Positions 8,084 through 63,826 of a DNA stretch of 64,000 nt are shown piece after piece (position 1 is the stretch's first letter; each line of letters starts with the position of its first letter). The DNA is taken from the IMG/VR virus record IMGVR_UViG_3300046323_000234; one strand, given 5' to 3'. Under the pieces are notes generated by a model, which searched no databases, had not been told where the DNA came from, and saw nothing but the letters and a program-made list of their open reading frames with translations. The position numbers were made by a program, and so were the translations under genes. The DNA is from a virus.

Positions 8084-8911
8084 TTAAAAACTATTTTCGA
8101 TTGGTTGTAAGCCGTAAATACATTCACCCTGTGCCACATAAGATCTACCCGATCCAAACATAATCCTAGCATCCAATCCATTATATTTTATTTCTTCTGA
8201 TTGTCCATTGAATAATATTAAATCACCAATCAAATCTCCGTTTGTCACGATATCCCCAAGTTTTTTATTGCTTGGAATAAATATTCCTTCACTACTGCTA
8301 TTAAATTCAATATAGTGTGAGTATATTGGATTTAAAGATTCAATTGTTAATGTGCTAACATTTGATATTAATTTTAATATAATTCTTGCACCATTTTTTG
8401 CAGAGTTTATATCAACAATATCAAGTTTATTTAATTCAATGGTAAATCCAATCTTATCATTGTCCAAGCAATATTTTTTTATTGTATCATTACTACTATT
8501 TCTAATAACATAATAAATATCACTACTTCTACAAAAATTAACATATGAATTACAAAATTTATCTCTATTGATTAATACAAAATCAGTACACAATGGTGAT
8601 GAATGTATATCTATAACAACATCTGAATTATCGATATTTTCTTTTAATGTTTCAAAAATGTCAACATTATCGGATTTAAACATTCTATTCAAATCATTTT
8701 GGATTGGCATCTCTCTGGTATTATCTCTAATACCTTGTTCATTTACAAAGTTTATAACAGTTAATTCACTATAATTTGGTGAATCTTGTGTTAAATATCT
8801 TTCCAATATAGATGCTGACATCACTGGTGTTAATTCATTTCCATGAACACCAGCAATTACTAATATTCTTTTAGTACCAGTTCCGTTGTATTTATTTAGT
8901 TGCATAATCAA
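8084..8911 (-). CDS. M14 succinylglutamate desuccinylase/aspartoacylase-family hydrolase
   Basis: AGVHGNE, DLNRMF, VIDIHS, FTIEL; C-terminal hybrid-barrel-like segment. Confidence 0.85.
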   Translation of the reverse strand: MIMQLNKYNGTGTKRILVIAGVHGNELTPVMSASILERYLTQDSPNYSELTVINFVNEQGIRDNTREMPIQNDLNRMFKSDNVDIFETLKENIDNSDVVIDIHSSPLCTDFVLINRDKFCNSYVNFCRSSDIYYVIRNSSNDTIKKYCLDNDKIGFTIELNKLDIVDINSAKNGARIILKLISNVSTLTIESLNPIYSHYIEFNSSSEGIFIPSNKKLGDIVTNGDLIGDLILFNGQSEEIKYNGLDARIMFGSGRSYVAQGECIYGLQPIENSF

Positions 8912-9665
8912 TCACTTCGTCAATTAATTCAAGTTCTTTTGCTTCATCAGCACTTAAATAATAATCACCTTCTTTCAACTTATTTTCCCACCATACTTTA
9001 GATTTATTTGATTTTGAAACCAATAAATCTAAAACACAATTGTTTAATTTCTTCAAATGTTCATAATTGATGGCCATATCTTTAAATGCTCCAAAAAATC
9101 CTCCATTGGTTTGGTGAATCATCATCCATGAGTTCTTGGACATTTTTCTATAATCACATGCAATCAAAATAAACGCACCACCAGACATTATCTGTCCACG
9201 ACCTGTACCATGTATTGGATATGGTTTTTCATTCAACAGATCAACAATTCCAAGTGTTGTATAAGCATCACCACCATAAGATGTTACAACAATATTTAAT
9301 GGTGATATTTTATCTTCTTCATATTCTGGAGATAACTTTTCAATTATTCTTATTTTTGTATCCATTTCTGATAGCGATAAATCATCAATATCAGATGATA
9401 AGTGAATCGTTTTATCACCAACATCAATTCTATGTTCCAATAATTCTTTTAATGCTACACTATATTGATTCCAAAATTCATTAGATTCCATTTCAGATGG
9501 CATCATTTCATCACCTTTTTGATCTTCTGGTGTATATGACATTTGTATTTCAATTGATGTACCTAGATGTTTCTCTAAATCATCTTTTAATTTATTATAT
9601 TTTTTGAAAAATGATTTATCATTCTTCATTTTATCTTGCAATTCCAAATATTTTACCTTATCCAT
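8892..9665 (-). CDS. clpP: ClpP-family protease subunit with N-terminal extension
   Basis: TSYGGD, GQIMSGGA (Ser), MMIHQ (His), GDYYLSADEAKELELIDEV (Asp). Confidence 0.88.
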   Translation of the reverse strand: MDKVKYLELQDKMKNDKSFFKKYNKLKDDLEKHLGTSIEIQMSYTPEDQKGDEMMPSEMESNEFWNQYSVALKELLEHRIDVGDKTIHLSSDIDDLSLSEMDTKIRIIEKLSPEYEEDKISPLNIVVTSYGGDAYTTLGIVDLLNEKPYPIHGTGRGQIMSGGAFILIACDYRKMSKNSWMMIHQTNGGFFGAFKDMAINYEHLKKLNNCVLDLLVSKSNKSKVWWENKLKEGDYYLSADEAKELELIDEVIDYATK

Positions 9666-10441
9666 TATTTTGGTTCTTTTAATGTTTTAGTATAATTTTG
9701 GAAAATAGTTTCAATATCATCAATAATTGGATTTCTAACGTTAACACCATCATCCATTTTTAATGTTCCAAATTTTGGATTATTTGAAAATAGTTTCATA
9801 GCCACTTGAAGTGAACTATCACCCTTTTGTTTTAAATCAATCTGATTTTCATCACCTAAACAAACAATCTTAGAATCTTCACCAATTCTGGTAAGTAATG
9901 TTCTTAAATTGTCAAGTGTAACATTTTGTGTTTCGTCCAATATAATAATACAGTTATCCAATGTTGCTCCACGAATATATGCAAGAGGCTGCATTTTGAT
10001 TATATTGGATTCGATTAGATCGGTTGTTCTATTTTCACCAATCAATTTATCGAGTGTTATAAAAAAACTCATCATATGTGGATATAACTTTTCTTTCATA
10101 TCCCCAGGTAAAAAACCCATCTCTTCATTTTTCAACATGATAATGGATTTAACTAAATAAATTTTTGTATACTTATTTCCAGATGATATAAGTAAGTCTA
10201 ATGCTTCAGCCAGTGCAACAAATGTTTTACCACATCCAGGTTTCCCAGAAACAAAACTAATCTCATTGGATTTGATTAATCTTATTAAATCAATTTGAGA
10301 ATCATTCTTCGCTTTTAATTTTAACTCCCTACCAAGAATTTTCTTGATTCTATCTTTATCATTTGCAATTGTTGCATCCTTTGATATTTCAAAATACTCT
10401 TCTTTTTTTTGTTTACTAGTCCTAAGTTGTTTAACAGCCAT
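9665..10441 (-). CDS. phoH: PhoH-like ATPase
   Basis: GKPGCGKT, MGFLPGD, PLAYIRGATL, ILDETQN, LLTRIGE, GDENQID. Confidence 0.95.
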   Translation of the reverse strand: MAVKQLRTSKQKKEEYFEISKDATIANDKDRIKKILGRELKLKAKNDSQIDLIRLIKSNEISFVSGKPGCGKTFVALAEALDLLISSGNKYTKIYLVKSIIMLKNEEMGFLPGDMKEKLYPHMMSFFITLDKLIGENRTTDLIESNIIKMQPLAYIRGATLDNCIIILDETQNVTLDNLRTLLTRIGEDSKIVCLGDENQIDLKQKGDSSLQVAMKLFSNNPKFGTLKMDDGVNVRNPIIDDIETIFQNYTKTLKEPK

Positions 10442-17553: not shown

Positions 17554-17949
17554 ATGAACAATGTTGATCCATACTCAATTGCTACAAATGGCCTATTAAC
17601 ATCAAATACAAATAATTATTTTGTTACTGATGGTTTAGGTTATTATACTATTCAAATTTCGGAAGAAATTATTGAAATTGATGTACCTACAGTAAGAAAT
17701 GGTAATTGGGTTGGTAGATTACCTAAGAGGGGTAGAAAGCAATCTGAAAAAATCTTAGTTAAAGAAATTACTGTTACAATTAATTTAGATTCACATAAAG
17801 AATATTTTAAATCTAAAATTCAATTAACTGATGTTAATCTCACAGTAACCAATGCAATAATTAATGGTGATGAAATTACATTAACTATTCATAATCCAAC
17901 CTTAAATATTGATGAAACTAGAATAGTAAAACTGAATGTTGTTTTATAA
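17554..17949 (+). CDS. Hypothetical protein, last gene of the appendage operon
   Basis: ORF starts 3 nt after the previous stop. Confidence 0.55.
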   Translation: MNNVDPYSIATNGLLTSNTNNYFVTDGLGYYTIQISEEIIEIDVPTVRNGNWVGRLPKRGRKQSEKILVKEITVTINLDSHKEYFKSKIQLTDVNLTVTNAIINGDEITLTIHNPTLNIDETRIVKLNVVL

Positions 17950-18126
17950 AAAAACTCTGTAACTACTATATTTATATAGTTCCTTTTCAAAAACATAAAT
18001 CTCAAATCCAATAATTGTATTTGTATTATTATTTTCAAATCTAACTAAATCGTAAATAGTATTTGGTTCGATATGATTTTTAATTATATCAAAAACATAA
18101 ATGGAACATTGGATTTGTTGTTGCAT
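17944..18126 (-). CDS. Small hypothetical protein, possible divergent CxYIxEI member
   Basis: QCSIYVFDIIKNHIEPN is a weak match; same size class as the family. Confidence 0.45.
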   Translation of the reverse strand: MQQQIQCSIYVFDIIKNHIEPNTIYDLVRFENNNTNTIIGFEIYVFEKELYKYSSYRVFL

Positions 18127-18130
18127 TATT

Positions 18131-18580
18131 TTAATAATGATAATATTTATGATTTGGTAAATAATTTTTTATTACCATAATAATTCTACTTCTATCAACA
18201 TCATTACCCACATCACCACCATAACTAGTAAAATAATATGGTAAATATCTTGCAATATATAAACCAATATGATTATATTGAATTGTACTATTTATATAAA
18301 TAATTTCATAATCAATAAAAAATATTTTAATATCATTAATATAATATTCAAAATTATAATCTTCATCTATAATATTAAATTTTCCCAACTGTGCTATTTT
18401 ATTTAAAATAATTTTAAATGATTCACAATATAATGATATTCCATCACTATTTTCTATTCTATATATTTCATTATATTCATCCAAAATAAATGAATTATTT
18501 ATTATTTTTTGATAAATATCAGCAATATGATAACACATTTTAAAATCATTTATAATGTGGTTTTCTTTGTTCCAATCCAT
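18131..18580 (-). CDS. CxYIxEI micro-protein family member with longer tail
   Basis: MCYHIADIYQKIINNSFILDEYNEI. Confidence 0.65.
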   Translation of the reverse strand: MDWNKENHIINDFKMCYHIADIYQKIINNSFILDEYNEIYRIENSDGISLYCESFKIILNKIAQLGKFNIIDEDYNFEYYINDIKIFFIDYEIIYINSTIQYNHIGLYIARYLPYYFTSYGGDVGNDVDRSRIIMVIKNYLPNHKYYHY

Positions 18581-51730: not shown

Positions 51731-51974
51731 AACAACATATTATAAAAGACTATAAACTAAAAGTCCAACATGATTTTCTCGTACTAGAGGCGGTATTTAT
51801 ATCATCACAAATTCAAAATATTTGGATTCAATATTAAATGAAATTGTTTTTAATAATTTCACAAAAGAAGAATATATTGAGATGTTATCAAATATGCGTG
51901 AAAATCCAAATGAACAGACTTCAAGTTATAAAACGGCTATTAATGGTTTATTCGTTAACGTTTTAAAATTATAA
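51727..51974 (+). pseudogene. Frameshifted CxYIxEI-family member
   Basis: The ATG 51727 frame stops after 36 codons. The -1 frame encodes IYIITNSKYLDSILNEIVFNNFTKEE, homologous to IYIQLSTNSLYLDEILRMILNNLTNEE in the next gene. Confidence 0.6.
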
Positions 51975-51975
51975 T

Positions 51976-52680
51976 ATGGTACTTAGAATTATTAAATGTA
52001 ATAATATATTGTTAAAATCAATATCTGGGATTATTCCTAGTGATATTTTAAGTCCAAATGGTAAATTTATTTATATTCAGTTATCAACTAATAGTTTATA
52101 TTTAGATGAGATTTTACGGATGATTTTAAATAATTTAACCAACGAAGAAAATTCGGATTTGATGGGGTGTATAAAAACATATAAGTTTATTAGCGAAAAT
52201 AATCATTATCAAAAGAGATTACTACATGGTTATTATTGTAAAATAATTGAATTGTAATATATTACCAGATGATAAAAATAGTTAATAATTGCTCAAGTTA
52301 TTTAAATCCAATCCTAAATCAGATTCAAGATTCGTTATTACCAATTGAAATATTTGATTATATTGGTTATGAAATTTATATGAAAATTGGAAAACAGTTG
52401 TTAAATGTAAATGGTGGTAAAATATATTTAGAAACAGCTAGATATTATATAATAAATGATTTGATATATGTTAAATGCGTTTTAAATGAATAGTTTAAAT
52501 GTTGATATTAAATTTAAGTGCTGTAAACATGTTCAAGATATTATTATATTGATAGATAAAAACCTTTTAATAGATGAAAGATCAGATTGGTTTGATGTTA
52601 CCAGAATCTATTATCGTGAAAAATTAGAAAATAAATTCAATGTGATTGGAGATTTAATTTATTTGGAAATAACCGATTAA
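51976..52680 (+). CDS. Three CxYIxEI-family micro-proteins (51976-52257, 52269-52493, 52486-52680)
   Basis: NSLYLDEILRMILNNLTNEE; CSSYLNPILNQIQDSLLPIEI; CCKHVQDIIILIDKNLLIDE. Confidence 0.7.
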
Positions 52681-57527: not shown

Positions 57528-58586
57528 ATGACAACAGTACGTGGAGCAGTAAAAAAGAAAGAGTTTTCCCTTGGTGATTATAAGAAAACAAAGGGAATTG
57601 ATAAAACAATGAGAAATAAGCCAGATAGGTGGATACCAGCATCAAAGGCATTTAAAGAGATAACTGGCTTACCAGGAGCGATTTATATGTCTGGATCGCA
57701 CTTTATATTCGGCTATGAAAATTCTGGGAAAACGACTTTAATCCTAGAAGCGGCTATATCAGCCCAGAAAATGAATATACTCCCAGTATTCTTAATGACC
57801 GAACAAAAACATAAATGGGATCATGCAAAGACGATGGGTTTTGAAGTTAATGAGATTGTTGATGCAGATGGTGTTGTAAGCTATGATGGATTTTTTTTAT
57901 ATTATGATAGACATAATTTTAGTACAGTTGAAGAACTTGCTAAAGTTATTCATGGTTTAATTGATGACCAAGAAGCTGGTAAATTACCATATGATTTATT
58001 GTTTCTCATTGATAGTTTTGGAAAATTAAACTGCGATAAGGGGGTAAAAAATAAGAACCAATTCAACCCTCAATGGATCAGTTCTTCCATTGCACACGAA
58101 TTTGGAGCTAGTGTAATTCCAAGAATTAATATGAGTATTAGTGAAAAATCTCAATATACAAACACACTTGTTCAAATTATTCAACCTTGGACTGAACTAC
58201 CAGATGTATATGGTGCTTTACCAAAGTTAACGCCAAAGGGTGGTAAATCATTACCACAAGATTCATCAATTGGATATAAATTTGGATCTAATACAAATAG
58301 TGGCACTTCAAGTATGAAGTTGAAAAAGAAGGGTCGTGAAATTGTTTGGGGTACTAGAACCAAAGTTGAGGTTGTGAAAAATCACATCACAATGTTATCG
58401 ACTAAAGGTAAATTAATCGCAACACCACATGGTTTTATTCTTGAAGATGAAGAAAAGGAGTATCTAGCAAAACATGCTGAATATTTTCTAGCACAATTAA
58501 ATACAGATAGTTTTGATGATGTGGAATTTTTTGAAGAAGATAATTCAGATGATGAACCAACCACAATAGAAGATATACTTGATTAA
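57528..58586 (+). CDS. uvsX: RecA/UvsX-like recombinase
   Basis: Walker A GYENSGKTT, TEQK, Walker B FLIDSFG, TPKGG, VVKNH. Confidence 0.88.
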   Translation: MTTVRGAVKKKEFSLGDYKKTKGIDKTMRNKPDRWIPASKAFKEITGLPGAIYMSGSHFIFGYENSGKTTLILEAAISAQKMNILPVFLMTEQKHKWDHAKTMGFEVNEIVDADGVVSYDGFFLYYDRHNFSTVEELAKVIHGLIDDQEAGKLPYDLLFLIDSFGKLNCDKGVKNKNQFNPQWISSSIAHEFGASVIPRINMSISEKSQYTNTLVQIIQPWTELPDVYGALPKLTPKGGKSLPQDSSIGYKFGSNTNSGTSSMKLKKKGREIVWGTRTKVEVVKNHITMLSTKGKLIATPHGFILEDEEKEYLAKHAEYFLAQLNTDSFDDVEFFEEDNSDDEPTTIEDILD

Positions 58587-58590
58587 AATT

Positions 58591-58634
58591 AATATATTGG
58601 ATTTGACCAAACCAATCAAATCCAATATATTTTT
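58591..58634 (+). terminator. Perfect 16-bp hairpin (terminator or translational operator of the endonuclease)
   Basis: aatatattggatttga / tcaaatccaatatatt with a 9-nt loop, 13 nt upstream of ATG 58645. Confidence 0.7.
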
Positions 58635-58644
58635 CACAATTTAA

Positions 58645-59865
58645 ATGGAAGATAATATAATATACAAAATTTATGGATTATATGCTTTAGATGATGAATC
58701 TAAAATAATTAGATATGTTGGATATACAAAAAGAACGATTAAAAAAAGATTATCATCACATATTCACCAATCCAAAGAACGTGATACACATAAAGATCGA
58801 TGGATAAGAAAAAATAATCGTAATATTGATGTTATATTAATTGAAGATAATATAAATACGTATGAATTGGTTTTAGAACGTGAAATATATTGGATTGATT
58901 ATTATAAGAAAATTGGGAATGATTTAGTAAATAGTACTGCTGGTGGTGATGGCACTAAAGGTAGATCACCATCAATGGCTGAACGTGAGCGTTCTAGAAA
59001 GTTAAATTTAGGTAAAAAATTATCTGAAGAACATAAAGCTAAAATAGGTAAGTCACATAAAGGTAAAATACTATCATTAGAACATAAGCAAAAATTAAAA
59101 GATAAAAAACAAAATGTTAGTGATGAAACCAAACAGAAAATGTCGATTATGGCCGTTAGGAGATTTTTGAGAGAGAAAAATATATTTGTTGATGATTTAT
59201 TAAATGATGAAATAGTTCACATAAAACAATTAATAATTGAATATGATAATTTAATAAAACAATTGGTAAAAACCCCAAATGATGATATCGAGTTTTATAA
59301 AAATAAGAATTTTGAAAATAAATTAAATTATGAATTAAAAAAATCCGAAGAGTATAAATTAGGAATTTTAACAAATAATGCAATAGCAATAAAAATAAAA
59401 GAAGATAAATTAAATATAATCAGAGAGAGAGAATTAAAAAAGAATTTTTTAATTCAAGAAAAAATTAATAAACAGCAATTAATTAAAACCGAAAGAGAAT
59501 TAAAGAAACAAAAAGAATATGAATCCAGACAAAAATTAATTGATTCGGGTGATCTATATCAAATGGTTAATTCACTTGGTAAATTGATTTGGGTTAGAAA
59601 AACGTCTGAACAAACCAAACAAAAACTTAGAGAAGCTAATCTTGGTAAGAAATATAGTGAAGAAACAAAAAGAAAACATTCTGAAACCAATTTTAGGATT
59701 AGAAATGGTAAAAAGGGTGTAAAATTAACCGAAGGTGATATTAGAGAAATTAGAAGATTATGCGATAATGAGAAAACAACTAAAGAATTGACAGAAATAT
59801 ATAATATGGATTATTCAACAATCAGAAAAATAGTCCTAAGAAAATTATGGTCAGACATTAAATAA
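58645..59865 (+). CDS. Free-standing GIY-YIG (Seg-like) homing endonuclease with NUMOD3 repeats and C-terminal HTH
   Basis: IYGL...YVGYT...RL..H, EREIYWI, NSTAGGDG; GKKLSEEHKAKIGKSHKGK repeats; KLTEGDIREIR...YSTIRKIV...W. Confidence 0.88.
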   Translation: MEDNIIYKIYGLYALDDESKIIRYVGYTKRTIKKRLSSHIHQSKERDTHKDRWIRKNNRNIDVILIEDNINTYELVLEREIYWIDYYKKIGNDLVNSTAGGDGTKGRSPSMAERERSRKLNLGKKLSEEHKAKIGKSHKGKILSLEHKQKLKDKKQNVSDETKQKMSIMAVRRFLREKNIFVDDLLNDEIVHIKQLIIEYDNLIKQLVKTPNDDIEFYKNKNFENKLNYELKKSEEYKLGILTNNAIAIKIKEDKLNIIRERELKKNFLIQEKINKQQLIKTERELKKQKEYESRQKLIDSGDLYQMVNSLGKLIWVRKTSEQTKQKLREANLGKKYSEETKRKHSETNFRIRNGKKGVKLTEGDIREIRRLCDNEKTTKELTEIYNMDYSTIRKIVLRKLWSDIK

Positions 59866-59866
59866 C

Positions 59867-62862
59867 ATGCAATCAAATATAATTTGGCTCAACACAATAC
59901 ATTATGAATGGTATTCACAGCTTGTTCCAACAAACATTGAATCATGTGATTATGTGAAAGATATTTTAACTGTAATTATAAATGATAACTTTGAATATAA
60001 AGAACTCCAACAATTATCTTATTTTGAAAAGATTAATTATTCTAGGGGGTGTAGATTTATAAATAAATCATTAAATTTCTATATAAATGCAATATAACAT
60101 AGCTTGTAAATATATATTGGATATACATCAATTAATAATTAATAATCTAACAGTTGAAGAAATTGATTTGTTTGAAGATGATTATCAACCCGATGGTAAA
60201 TATAAATATTATCCATTTTTTACAATTTCTAAAATATTGTATAGTGAACATACCTATTATGCTGGAATGCAGACAACATATATATTTAAATTATATGATA
60301 TAGAATGAAGAAGCCTTGTAAATATATATTAGAAATTCATCAATTAATTGTTGATAATCTAATAGATATTGAAATATTTGGATTGGATGAAACACTGGAT
60401 AAATATTATTTATCCTCAAGTGAATTACCATCAATCCATATAAGCAATATTGAATATATATGGAAATTTAATAATGGCATCTATTTAGGTGTTAAACAAA
60501 AATAAGAACATGAAGCCTTGTAAATACATAATAGACATACATTCAAATATCGTTACTAATCATTTCATTGATGAAGAATTTATTGGCATTAAAAATAAAT
60601 ATCATTGGGTAGAAGATCAAATTATTTGCGATTATATTTTTGATTGTGGAATAATATATAGATATAATTGGACAACGAATGAATTAACATTAACAACATA
60701 TGAATAAAGTTTGTAATCACATATTAATAATACACTCTACAATTGTAAAAACATTTTTGCAAGATGATTTTAAGGAATTAAAATGCAACAGTGAAACATA
60801 TTACGATATGAACATAAAATCAATTGTCGTTAATTATTGGTTTAAATCATTGGATATAAGATATAAATATTATTACAACAGCGAATTAGTTTCACTAAGA
60901 TCACCAGATATTATAAAATGATAAACAACATAGAGAAAACAATATATATGAAACATTCTCATAATTCAAATCTAAGATTGCACATGGAATCTGAATGTTG
61001 TTTTTATGTAAATGAAATTTTGCCAAATATATTAAAAAATATTACATTTATGGAATTGTCTGATTTTACATATTATAAAAATCATGCATATAAAAGATAT
61101 ATGAATAAATTAATTTATATTTATTAGTTATGAAACTTAAACCATCTTGTGATTATATATTAGAAATTCATGGTATTATTGTTAAAAATATAACAACAGA
61201 GGAATTATTTGATTTTGTTGACATAATATCACCAATCCTATATAGTCCAAATGATTTTGGATTAATTAAAAAATATTATTTTATGAAAATTGGATTAGTT
61301 TATGATAGAGAATTTGATTATGGTTAAACCATGTAATCATATATTAGAAATACATCAGTTAATTATTAATACATTATTAGATGATGAAATAAATGAATTA
61401 GCGGATGCACATTCACCAATCATAAATAATCCATATTTAAAAATGAATTATTGTTATTTCTTTTTCACAAAGTTTTATATCAAATACAGTAGAGAATTTA
61501 TATTTTAACAATGCAATATCAGGATAGACCATCGCAATATATTAAAGAAATTCATGATATGATTTATGGAAATCTAACCAAAGATGAATTATATGATTGG
61601 ATAAAATTATTAGAAACTGATCCAAGTTATTATGTACTGCCAATGTTTCAAAATGCAATTGATATTTATATTTTAAAATGTGATCATTTAGTATAACCAA
61701 TGAAACCAGCTTGTAAATATATATTAGAAATTCATCAATTGATTGTTGATAATTTATTGATTATTGATGAAGTATTACCACTATTTGATGGTAATTATAT
61801 TGGCGACTATAAATATTTAACATCAATTAGTTCAATCAAATATATAATATTAATTATTCCTTCAAGGAAATATATAATATACCAAACGAATGAATATTAA
61901 ATCAGCTTGTAATTATATATTAGAAATACATCAACAAATTATTGATAATATAACTATTGATGAGGTTAAGGAGATATGTACGATATTGAATGATGATATT
62001 CAGGTTACTAATTTTATATTAAAAGCCTATTACATCGAGATTTATCCAATCCAATATAGATTTAGTTGGAGAACGTTTAACTATAAACAACAATAAAATA
62101 ATGAGTAAATCTAGATTAATATACAAGTATTATTATTATGAGCATGAAACATGTTGTAATTATATAATTAAAATTGTTGATACTATTTTTGATAATATGA
62201 ATTATGCTGAAGTTAATGAACTTGTTCAAGAACGTAGATTATTAATGGATTGGGACATAACAAAAGAGAATGTATTTTTGATTTGTTATTTGCGTTATAT
62301 AGAAACAACATATCCGTTTTAATATGAAAGTTGCTTGTGACTACATATTGGAAATACATCAATTAATTGTCGATAATTTAACATCTGGCGAGATAGTATT
62401 ATTTATGTCAAGATTGGAAAAGATAAATGCTATTCAAAATCGGATATTATTATATCCAATCCAATATAAATATTTTTCACTAATTTCAGTGACAAATCAA
62501 AAAATTAAGATTGAATATGTTAAGACATTAATATATTAAACAAAATGCAATATAACATACCTTGTAAACATATATTAGAAATTCATCAATTAATTGTTGA
62601 TAATTTAACTGGTGATGAAATTTATAAAATAGCTGATGATGGTATTGAAATTCGTTTAGGGCAAAAACATTCATCAATATCATTAACAATAAATAATATA
62701 TATTATATTCCAGATAGTGTGTTTTGTAATTATGCAAAACAATTTAATATTAAAACCATAACAAATGAAGAAGAACAAAACAAAAACATTGCTGGTGGAT
62801 GCCACATATTTATTAAAAAGGTCATTAACTGGTTCAAAAAACACATACGTTGGTGGAGATAA
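59867..62862 (+). repeat. Tandem array of 14 CxYIxEIH micro-genes with ~200-bp period (starts 59867, 60087, 60305, 60510, 60700, 60918, 61130, 61320, 61511, 61700, 61890, 62101, 62324, 62545)
   Basis: Every ORF carries a variant of C-x-[YH]-[IV]-x-[ED]-I-[HL]-x-x-I-x-x-N-[LIF]-x-x-x-E. A 44-bp DNA core is nearly identical at 60315, 61710 and 62561. Confidence 0.92.
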
Positions 62863-63826
62863 TAATGTTGGTATTTATACATTCATAACTACATTAAGAA
62901 AATTAATTAATGAAACCAAAGTAAATAGGGTTGTATTATGTTGGGATGGTGAGAATTCTGGGAAGCGCAGATATTTGATTTCTAGCGACTACAAAGCCAA
63001 TCGAAAGGGAAAGAGTTGGTATAATAAAATTCAGTTAACTGAGGCTGAAATTAAGTACCTAGAAAGGGATAAACAATCAGAGCTATATCAAAAAGTTAGA
63101 ATACAAAACTATTGTGAGGAATTATTCATTAGACAAGTTGAGATTGACGAAGTTGAAGCTGATGATATGATTGCACAATACGTAATAAATTTTTCAGAGA
63201 TAGAAGATATTATTGTATACACAAATGATAAAGATTATATTCAATTATTAGATTATAACATATCTGTATATCTTAATTTTATTGGTTTAATAATTGATAA
63301 AAATGATTTCTTCATGCATTTTCCATATCATTATAAAAATTCATTAACCATTAAAATAATGTGTGGTGATAGTGGTGATAATGTAAAGGGAATTAAAGGA
63401 TTTGCTGAACCAACATTCATGTCTTTATTTCCAGATGCAAAAGATAAGCATTTAATGGTAAAGGATGTTATTAGATTGGCCAAACAAATCCAAAAAGATA
63501 GAATTGATAATAAGCAAAAACCATTAAAGGTTATTGAGAATATAATAAACGGAAAAGATATTTATATTTTAAATAAACAATTGGTGGATCTATCATCACC
63601 ATTATTAAATGAAGATGAGAAGAATATTATATTAGATTTAGCATTGCCATTAGATTCTGAAAATAGAGGTTCAAAAAATTTAATTAGATTAATGAATGAA
63701 GATAAATTTTTATCAAATTACAATGGAAATAGATCTGATTTCGCTTCATATGTTGAGCCATTTTATATTATAATCTCAAGTGAGAAAAAATTATTTGAAG
63801 AATATTCAAAAAATATAAAATATTAA
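62765..63826 (+). CDS. 5'-3' exonuclease/flap endonuclease (T4 RNase H or PolI N-terminal-like)
   Basis: LLVDA, CWDG, YKANR, EVEADDMIA, TNDKDYIQL, CGDSGDNVKGIKG. Confidence 0.93.
   Translation: MKKNKTKTLLVDATYLLKRSLTGSKNTYVGGDNNVGIYTFITTLRKLINETKVNRVVLCWDGENSGKRRYLISSDYKANRKGKSWYNKIQLTEAEIKYLERDKQSELYQKVRIQNYCEELFIRQVEIDEVEADDMIAQYVINFSEIEDIIVYTNDKDYIQLLDYNISVYLNFIGLIIDKNDFFMHFPYHYKNSLTIKIMCGDSGDNVKGIKGFAEPTFMSLFPDAKDKHLMVKDVIRLAKQIQKDRIDNKQKPLKVIENIINGKDIYILNKQLVDLSSPLLNEDEKNIILDLALPLDSENRGSKNLIRLMNEDKFLSNYNGNRSDFASYVEPFYIIISSEKKLFEEYSKNIKY

Follow-up and report, generated by a model that had tools for sequence, protein, structure and literature searches.

Positions 59867-62862 of a 64,000-nt stretch of IMG/VR record IMGVR_UViG_3300046323_000234 (hereafter the window) carry a tandem array of very small genes, which belongs to an uncultured, lytic phage of about 171 kb and low G+C content. 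Exactly 14 open reading frames (ORFs) of 61-105 amino acids (aa), all on the plus strand, tile the interval between a gene for a GIY-YIG endonuclease and a gene for a 5'-3' exonuclease. A first-pass annotation of this DNA had described 14 abutting or overlapping ORFs, mostly of 61-76 aa with a period of about 200 bp, and had named both flanking genes. These descriptions are borne out, with 13 of the 14 units in that size range, a mean period of 214 bp and PHROG matches for the two flanks. Its placement of the phage among the 'jumbo' phages is not, however, since the contig measures 171,483 bp. Thirteen units begin with ATG, and the junctions between units range from -26 to +5 nt, two of them being ATGA overlaps.

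ORFs of at least 55 aa cover 99.4% of the plus strand of the array compared with 7% of the minus strand. Among 1000 shuffled versions, coverage averaged 1.8% (maximum 21.5%) and the number of such ORFs averaged 0.28 (maximum 3). Because coverage is 99.4% against 1.8% in shuffled DNA at the same G+C content of about 22%, the tiling is not a product of chance. The G+C fractions of the array at the three codon positions (0.30/0.21/0.16) follow the same pattern as those of the neighboring long genes, in which the third position is poorer in G+C than the first. These measures indicate that the array units are real protein-coding micro-genes.

A module of about 22 aa, C-[KND]-[YH]-I-L-E-I-H-Q-L-I-V-D-N-L-T-x-x-E-[ILV], is present in all 14 units, as the first-pass annotation had claimed. 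Leave-one-out hidden Markov models (HMMs) recognize every unit at E values from 7e-14 to 0.0019, thus all at E <= 0.002, when database size is set to the six-frame ORF set of the window; units 1, 12 and 6 give the weakest values. Likewise, each of 28 domains from the whole family, described below, passes this test at E <= 0.0033. Codons within the module vary synonymously (TTA/TTG/CTA, ATA/ATT, GTT/GTC/GTA, GAA/GAG and TAT/TAC), and in the seven best-conserved units the proportion of nonsynonymous differences (pN) is 0.18 compared with 0.47 for synonymous differences (pS). Conservation therefore acts at the protein level, and the module is, by these measures, under purifying selection.

Several other explanations for the conserved segment were rejected. 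It does not behave as an RNA or DNA structural element, with a mean folding z score of -0.15 and predicted structures that differ between units, nor as a promoter, given 74 sigma-70-like matches in the region where 72.3 are expected from shuffled sequences. A lipobox or signal peptide at the conserved Cys was also dismissed, as this residue lies 4-10 positions from the initiating Met without a hydrophobic leader. The family proteins have grand average of hydropathy values near 0 and carry no transmembrane segments.

Unit 13 was modeled by AlphaFold2 using an alignment of the 28 family domains. Residues 6-17 and 21-38 form two helices with predicted local distance difference test (pLDDT) scores of about 90, and the module is accordingly modeled as an amphipathic alpha-hairpin (helix-turn-helix). 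In this model helix 1 corresponds to Y-I-L-E-I-H-Q-L-I-V-D-N-L, and module residues C1, I4, H8, I11 and L15 form one hydrophobic face; divergent members have L, V, M or I in place of H8. The T/S-x-x-E sequence at the start of the second helix would be a capping box in its classic arrangement. A homodimer prediction for unit 13 with the same alignment scored 0.02, with the partner fold uncertain, and speaks neither way on oligomerization.

The first-pass annotation had remarked that the helix spacing loosely echoes that of F-box proteins, which brings up the possibility that the micro-proteins are degradation adaptors. The module would then dock on protease or ubiquitin-like machinery (in an F-box-like or NblA-like manner, or on the ClpP of the phage) and the tails would choose the substrates. 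Like the module, F-box, F-box-like and PRANC domains present an amphipathic helix with E-I-x3-I-[LV]-x2-L-x3-[DE]-[LI] spacing beside variable partner-binding regions, and the spacing E-I-x3-I-[VL]-x2-L-x3-[DE]-[ILV] coincides with F-box helices 1 and 2. Large viruses that infect eukaryotes often encode expanded multigene families with domains of F-box type. Moreover, the phage encodes a ClpP homologue, and NblA, a helix-loop-helix Clp adaptor, is among the tied weak structural matches to the modeled hairpin (Z 2.4-2.5).

The likeness in spacing stands, but membership in these families does not. A Pfam scan of 24 members (14 from the array plus 10 more) gave no match to F-box (PF00646), F-box-like (PF12937), PRANC or NblA (PF04485) at E <= 1, and no F-box chain came up at E <= 10 when PDB sequences were searched with a profile. 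The module always lacks an initial L-P, having C-[KND]-[YH] there instead, and the third helix with its conserved Trp is absent, the AlphaFold2 model showing two helices followed by a low-confidence tail. Foldseek found no match in the PDB, and the best score in a wide VIA-align comparison (Z 2.9) was tied with many unrelated, generic helical hairpins, among which F-box was not listed; the NblA scores were likewise tied with unrelated hairpins. The array proteins are mostly 61-76 aa in total and their host is bacterial, and to our knowledge bacterial hosts have no Skp1. The clpP gene is 50 kb distant and nothing in the analysis favors a role for its product. We therefore consider degradation adaptors very improbable.

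Downstream of the module, each protein continues with a tail of 35-50 aa that is rich in Tyr, Ile, Asn and Lys and poor in Cys, Ser and Thr. These tails mostly cannot be aligned, in agreement with the first-pass annotation: pairwise local BLOSUM62 scores among the 14 array tails average 22.6, compared with 21.4 after shuffling, and 9% of the pairs exceed the shuffled 95th percentile. They are not quite without a common feature, however, as an [ILV]-x-Y motif, called a strand motif, is retained in at least 90% of members in one alignment. A hidden relationship through frameshifts or DNA similarity was rejected, as nothing beyond 12-16-nt words was found.

The closest pair of paralogues, located outside the window (L015 3937-4152 and 4152-4352), permits the selection on the two parts to be compared. 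Nonsynonymous and synonymous divergence (dN/dS) in this pair is 0.06/0.41 (about 0.15) for the module and 0.38/0.35 (about 1.1) for the tail, suggesting that amino acid changes accumulate in the tails at roughly the synonymous rate. This contrast, together with tail scores at the level of shuffled sequences, bears out the description of a constant module joined to a hypervariable tail. The tail frames nevertheless stay open within a narrow range of lengths, though about 9% of random codons are stops at 22% G+C. Because such stops would be frequent over 35-50 codons in 27 genes, the tails appear to be kept open by selection.

A dosage amplification ('genomic accordion') would account for part of this pattern. 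Only the hairpin would have a function, such as titration of a single host protein; its copies would have multiplied because more of it was needed, and the tails would be drifting filler. A tail dN/dS near 1, tails that are statistically unrelated and a strongly conserved module are what such a process predicts, as are head-to-tail repeats with recombinogenic cores and a copy that apparently lacks a start codon (the first unit of a second array, below). Yet drifting filler would not be expected to remain open for 35-50 codons in 27 genes, to keep lengths of 61-76 aa in 13 of 14 units or to preserve the [ILV]-x-Y motif. The copies also are old, with module pS reaching saturation, rather than recent identical amplicons. 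On this balance we regard amplification for dosage as improbable.

Many short, tandem paralogues with a constant N-terminal and a hypervariable C-terminal part are the hallmark of precursor families for ribosomally synthesized and post-translationally modified peptides (RiPPs), such as the prochlorosin ProcA paralogues. By analogy with these and with class II bacteriocins, the module could be a leader read by one maturation enzyme and the tails core peptides. The L-T-x-x-E-[IL] sequence superficially resembles the L-S-x-x-E-L of double-glycine leaders, but this T-x-x-E is accounted for as the capping box that opens modeled helix 2. Membership among double-glycine or Nif11/NHLP-leader RiPPs was rejected: the sequence after the module contains no GG or GA at which a leader would be cleaved, and the genes examined beside the clusters included no recognizable enzyme for maturation or export (radical-SAM, LanM, YcaO or C39 transporter). 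Unlike RiPP cores, the tails show no bias toward modifiable residues, being poor in precisely Cys, Ser and Thr, and the setting is a replication gene block of a lytic phage. A RiPP-like role is hardly credible.

The array is not the whole family. A family HMM detects further members in three more loci, which brings the total to at least 27 genes, with 29 modules, at four sites on one 171,483-bp contig (Table 1). Outside the window, the part of this contig that was covered comprises about 1.8 kb before the window's start (L017) and a separate 9-kb piece (L015).

Table 1. Members of the micro-gene family and genes discussed with them. Positions are those of the window except where L015 is given.
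Feature	Length	Position	Strand	Remarks
Unit 1	76 aa	59867..60097	+	Divergent; 26-aa N-terminal extension; module CDYVKDILTVIINDNF; leave-one-out HMM E=0.0019
Unit 2	73 aa	60087..60308	+	11-nt overlap with unit 1; leave-one-out E=7e-14
Unit 3	66 aa	60305..60505	+	ATGA overlap with unit 2; 48-nt module core 92% identical to units 10 and 14
Unit 4	72 aa	60489..60707	+	72 aa from GTG; 65 aa from ATG at 60510 (public gene call)
Unit 5	73 aa	60700..60921	+	
Unit 6	69 aa	60918..61127	+	Divergent; 27-aa N-terminal extension; ATGA overlap with unit 5; leave-one-out E=1.3e-6
Unit 7	65 aa	61130..61327	+	
Unit 8	68 aa	61302..61508	+	Tail weakly alignable with unit 7 tail (score 40)
Unit 9	61 aa	61511..61696	+	Module Cys replaced by Ser
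Unit 10	66 aa	61700..61900	+	
Unit 11	68 aa	61890..62096	+	
Unit 12	73 aa	62101..62322	+	Divergent; 18-aa N-terminal extension; leave-one-out E=2e-4
Unit 13	71 aa	62324..62539	+	Modeled member; helices 6-17 and 21-38, pLDDT ~90; tail <50
Unit 14	105 aa	62545..62862	+	Last 98 nt (62765-62862) overlap exonuclease gene in another frame
Second array		51774..52680	+	Four members: 51774/51822-51974, 51976-52257, 52269-52493, 52486-52680
P0008	231 aa	3638..4333	-	Three modules in tandem (fused form); E=2.9e-35, three stretches
Single member	71 aa	3442..3657	-	Directly downstream of three-module gene
Weak candidate member	88-100 aa	1460..1759	-	Length of frame given; HMM E=0.004
Fourth locus		L015 2477-4576		Seven members, including a 61-aa protein; same contig, outside window
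UvsX/RecA-like recombinase		57528..58586	+	Conserved flank upstream of insertion site; 43% identity to nearest relative (L001)
GIY-YIG/NUMOD homing endonuclease	406 aa	58645..59865	+	phrog_314 at 7e-22; abuts unit 1 with 1-nt gap
5'-3' exonuclease		62765..63826	+	phrog_107 at 2e-29; conserved downstream flank; 55% identity to nearest relative (L001)
ClpP homologue		8892-9665	-	~100-aa N-terminal extension

The first unit of the second array has no in-frame ATG before its module. The reading frame of an ATG at 51770 is shifted by one base, and the only canonical in-frame start, TTG 51822, lies downstream of the module; this unit may be a decaying copy or may use an unusual start. An AlphaFold2 model of the three-module protein had a mean pLDDT of 56, with the alignment covering only the third repeat, and is uninformative on how the modules pack against each other. 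In the fourth locus an unrelated 229-aa ORF (L015 3061-3750), without a Pfam or PHROG match, divides the cluster into three and four units, and the cluster is followed by RlaP-like nucleotidyltransferase, AAA and DUF2201 genes.

Module-like stretches were also noticed elsewhere. By eye, a 149-aa ORF on the minus strand (18131-18580) contains C-Y-H-I-A-D-I-Y-Q-K-I-I-N-N...D-E-Y, and its minus-strand neighbor (17947-18168) contains a weaker one; both fall below the HMM threshold. These two ORFs, located beside an IMPDH/GMP-reductase-like gene, may be very divergent members. The GIY-YIG gene likewise includes a stretch at 59183-59238 (...IFVDDLLNDEIVHIKQLII...) that resembles the module in DNA and peptide sequence, without HMM significance.

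The first-pass annotation did not recognize the family, and database searches gave the same outcome. Family proteins have no match in Pfam (the 14 + 10 proteins at E <= 1) or PHROGs, and a word-indexed search of 5.8 billion proteins returned no relative. HMMER searches of 1.84 billion protein representatives retrieved only proteins of this phage, the sole match outside the window being on the same contig. IMG/VR, searched by protein and by degenerate DNA pattern, yielded no relative, the four pattern matches being chance 8-mers. No family match was found in JGI metagenome contigs, in the 185,579 species genomes of GTDB or, by blastn, in cultured phages. The best PDB sequence-profile match, a ParM-like helix, was judged to be chance (its whole-sequence E value was 1.5e-4 when the chain was a duplicated fusion construct but 0.06 when it was the native protein), and RelA/SpoT-like matches in the ESM Atlas were dismissed as meaningless because its own model had a pLDDT of 0.47. 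With no Pfam, PHROG, PDB or fold match, the module corresponds to no characterized domain among those searched, and the family appears to be new, without detectable relatives in these databases.

The nearest relative of the phage that we found (L001/G001) is represented by a contig of 265,845 bp, which is complete and has terminal repeats. Both share an ordered series of genes encoding proteins of 203, 60, 228, 458 and 370 aa, UvsX and the exonuclease, at 31-64% identity. Between UvsX and the exonuclease, however, the relative has just two ORFs, one of 67 aa and a phosphoesterase-like one of 230 aa; where the second array would lie it has nothing, and no counterpart of the GIY-YIG protein was found at the corresponding locus. 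No family member was detected anywhere in the complete 265-kb genome at E <= 1. Rather than carrying tails conserved one-to-one, the nearest relative thus lacks both arrays of the window. Because the syntenic flanks are kept and the array sites are empty or differently filled, the two arrays are, by this comparison, specific to the lineage and occupy variable slots that conserved genes for replication and recombination enclose.

The arrays recall the hyperplastic regions of T4-like phages, where variable small ORFs of unknown function lie between conserved core blocks and are present or absent among relatives. Shuffling in those regions is ascribed to PeSL promoter/stem-loop cassettes, with short conserved DNA motifs as recombination sites (PMC4122927, PMC2839356). 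As in such regions, the arrays lie between conserved core genes, at sites that are empty or differently filled in the nearest relative. The arrays consist of paralogues of one family, in contrast to the unrelated genes of hyperplastic regions. Also, the repeat lies within coding sequence and there is no intergenic space, whereas the PeSL cassettes are intergenic promoters and terminators.

DNA encoding the module forms a dispersed direct repeat, with nine 69-nt copies that are 65-84% identical and a run of 26 nt that is 100% identical between units 3 and 10. The non-adjacent units 3, 10 and 14 share a 48-nt core at 90-92% identity (pS 0.18-0.29), and their tails are unrelated. Such near-identity of distant cores beside unrelated tails fits, and is suggestive of, unequal crossing-over or gene conversion mediated by the module. 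The family would then have grown by tandem duplication with unequal recombination or gene conversion, for which the repeat of about 50-70 nt would provide the homologous handle. The absence of terminators and intergenic space in the array, and the overlap of stops and starts, argue for one polycistronic transcript with coupled translation. The array would thus be co-transcribed with the surrounding replication genes, and its units would be translated by coupling or re-initiation.

The closest analogy for the architecture is the internal proteins of T-even phages (Ip1, Ip2, Ip3 and the polymorphic ip loci), which carry a capsid-targeting sequence. These are small, non-essential proteins encoded several per genome in variable hotspots, with a shared N-terminal segment and unrelated bodies, and their diversity has been attributed to an arms race in which the restriction enzymes of the hosts vary (PMC3012670; PMC12373910). 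A shared N-terminal element, unrelated bodies and location in phage hotspots are the points of likeness; there is no sequence relationship. By extension, the micro-proteins could themselves be packaged and injected, the module being a capsid-targeting signal that docks on the scaffolding core and the bodies being ejected with the DNA to act against host defenses. The architecture fits this, the only well-studied precedent (PMC3012670, PMC12373910), and in 11 of the 14 units the module begins at residue 5-11, straight after M-K-x-P. The module also contains an I-L-E triplet resembling the [LI]-x-E sites at which the T4 prohead protease cuts.

Other observations weaken the packaging reading or set the family apart from internal proteins. 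The conserved part is a 22-aa segment modeled as a folded helical hairpin with a capping box, not a cleaved leader of about 10 aa. Although the module starts at residue 4-11 in most family members, 18-38 residues precede it in units 1, 6 and 12 and in the member at 51976. P0008 carries three copies, two of which are internal. At least 27 copies are found here, compared with three in T4 and about 10 reported across its relatives. Moreover, the arrays are embedded among genes for replication and recombination, neither a head gene nor a prohead protease of T4 type was recognized near them, the window showed no recognizable head module or protease of that type, and the ClpP homologue is encoded between PhoH and an AstE/AspA-like gene rather than in a head module. 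Packaging and injection are therefore unlikely, on our assessment.

We favor, tentatively and as something short of probable, the view that the family is a diversified accessory repertoire for host takeover or counter-defense. In it all members would use the constant hairpin as a scaffold or as a dock for the same partner, and the tails would present many alternative interaction surfaces shaped by an arms race; these two steps are the least certain of the scheme. Because no tool gave a functional handle, the mechanism is drawn from anatomy and precedent. The first-pass annotation had likewise likened the architecture to that of an adaptor or inhibitor repertoire, with anti-defense decoys, ClpP adaptors and a shared packaging signal as possible examples; the constant module and variable region stand, and the measured contrast in selection supports them. 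A conserved module and a fast but open tail within proteins of about 65 aa are the signature expected of a repertoire directed against a variable target.

Several observations weigh against a diversified repertoire. The tail dN/dS near 1 comes from a single pair with 6.5 synonymous and 30.5 nonsynonymous changes, and a value near 1 fits relaxed constraint as well as diversifying selection. Isoelectric points from 4.6 to 9.8 and widely variable net charge leave the proteins without a shared physicochemical signature, of which DNA mimicry would be an example. AlphaFold2 does not model the tail of unit 13 reliably (pLDDT <50) and makes the tail of the three-module protein a helix, so that a common tail fold is not established. 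The low pS of some module cores may reflect AT-biased codon usage and not gene conversion. Finally, the public contigs that include the array region (L012-L014) are 100% identical to the window and hence offer no population variation to compare.

A bolder form of the repertoire view is possible, though we think it rather doubtful. The family would be a self-diversifying cassette system, in which the module repeat keeps duplicating, converting and reshuffling units at several sites to yield perhaps 50 or more micro-proteins with one partner and differing anti-defense tails. That partner, within the same doubtful proposal, would be either a hub protein of the host or, if the proteins are injected, the core of the capsid. 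If correct, such a system would be to phages what multigene variation families are to eukaryotic parasites and to large DNA viruses, and its protein fold would have no known relatives.

Tailed phages, in which the capsid sets a limit on genome size, seldom show paralogous expansions. In this phage, a single ORFan family fills at least 5.5 kb of a 171-kb genome. The family is new, yet its design, in which unrelated bodies follow a shared N-terminal element in hotspots, has a known analogue. Should the tails be specific inhibitors, they would constitute a rich source of new anti-defense proteins. Should the module instead be a packaging or docking signal, the strategy of the T4 internal proteins would have arisen twice, independently, and the module might serve as a tag with which to load cargo. 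The proteins are small, modular and easily synthesized, and these proposals are thus directly testable.

The window has the gene content of a bacterial phage, including UvsX, DnaB, PhoH and ClpP. Most of its large proteins lack a PHROG match and the phage lineage is very divergent; no tRNA genes were found in the whole window. A Shine-Dalgarno motif precedes none of the 47 long genes and none of the 14 array starts, and A/T-rich DNA lies upstream of the starts in both sets. The missing ribosome-binding sites of the array are therefore normal for this phage, since its long genes have none either. Initiation independent of Shine-Dalgarno motifs is a trait of hosts such as Bacteroidota, and the host is probably one with such initiation. 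The best cultured-phage matches of the exonuclease (at most 28% identity) include Flavobacterium and Maribacter phages. In the public gene call the exonuclease starts 30 nt later (343 aa), which still leaves an overlap of 68 nt with unit 14.

The GIY-YIG endonuclease has NUMOD3-like repeats and a helix-turn-helix-like C-terminal end. In the 58-nt gap between the UvsX-like and GIY-YIG genes lies a 41-nt hairpin (58591-58631) with 19 paired positions and a loop of 3, which may be a terminator, or else an element of the mobile endonuclease that serves in processing or marks its insertion site. The genes for PhoH, the ClpP homologue and the AstE/AspA-like desuccinylase adjoin one another on the minus strand (8084-10441), away from any recognizable head module. 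The phage contig also carries a 455-aa TnpB/IS605 OrfB-like gene (L017 11795-13162) just outside the window, some 0.4-1.8 kb ahead of its first position; the gene has a Pfam OrfB_IS605 match and a faint match to Cas12f1-like TNB.

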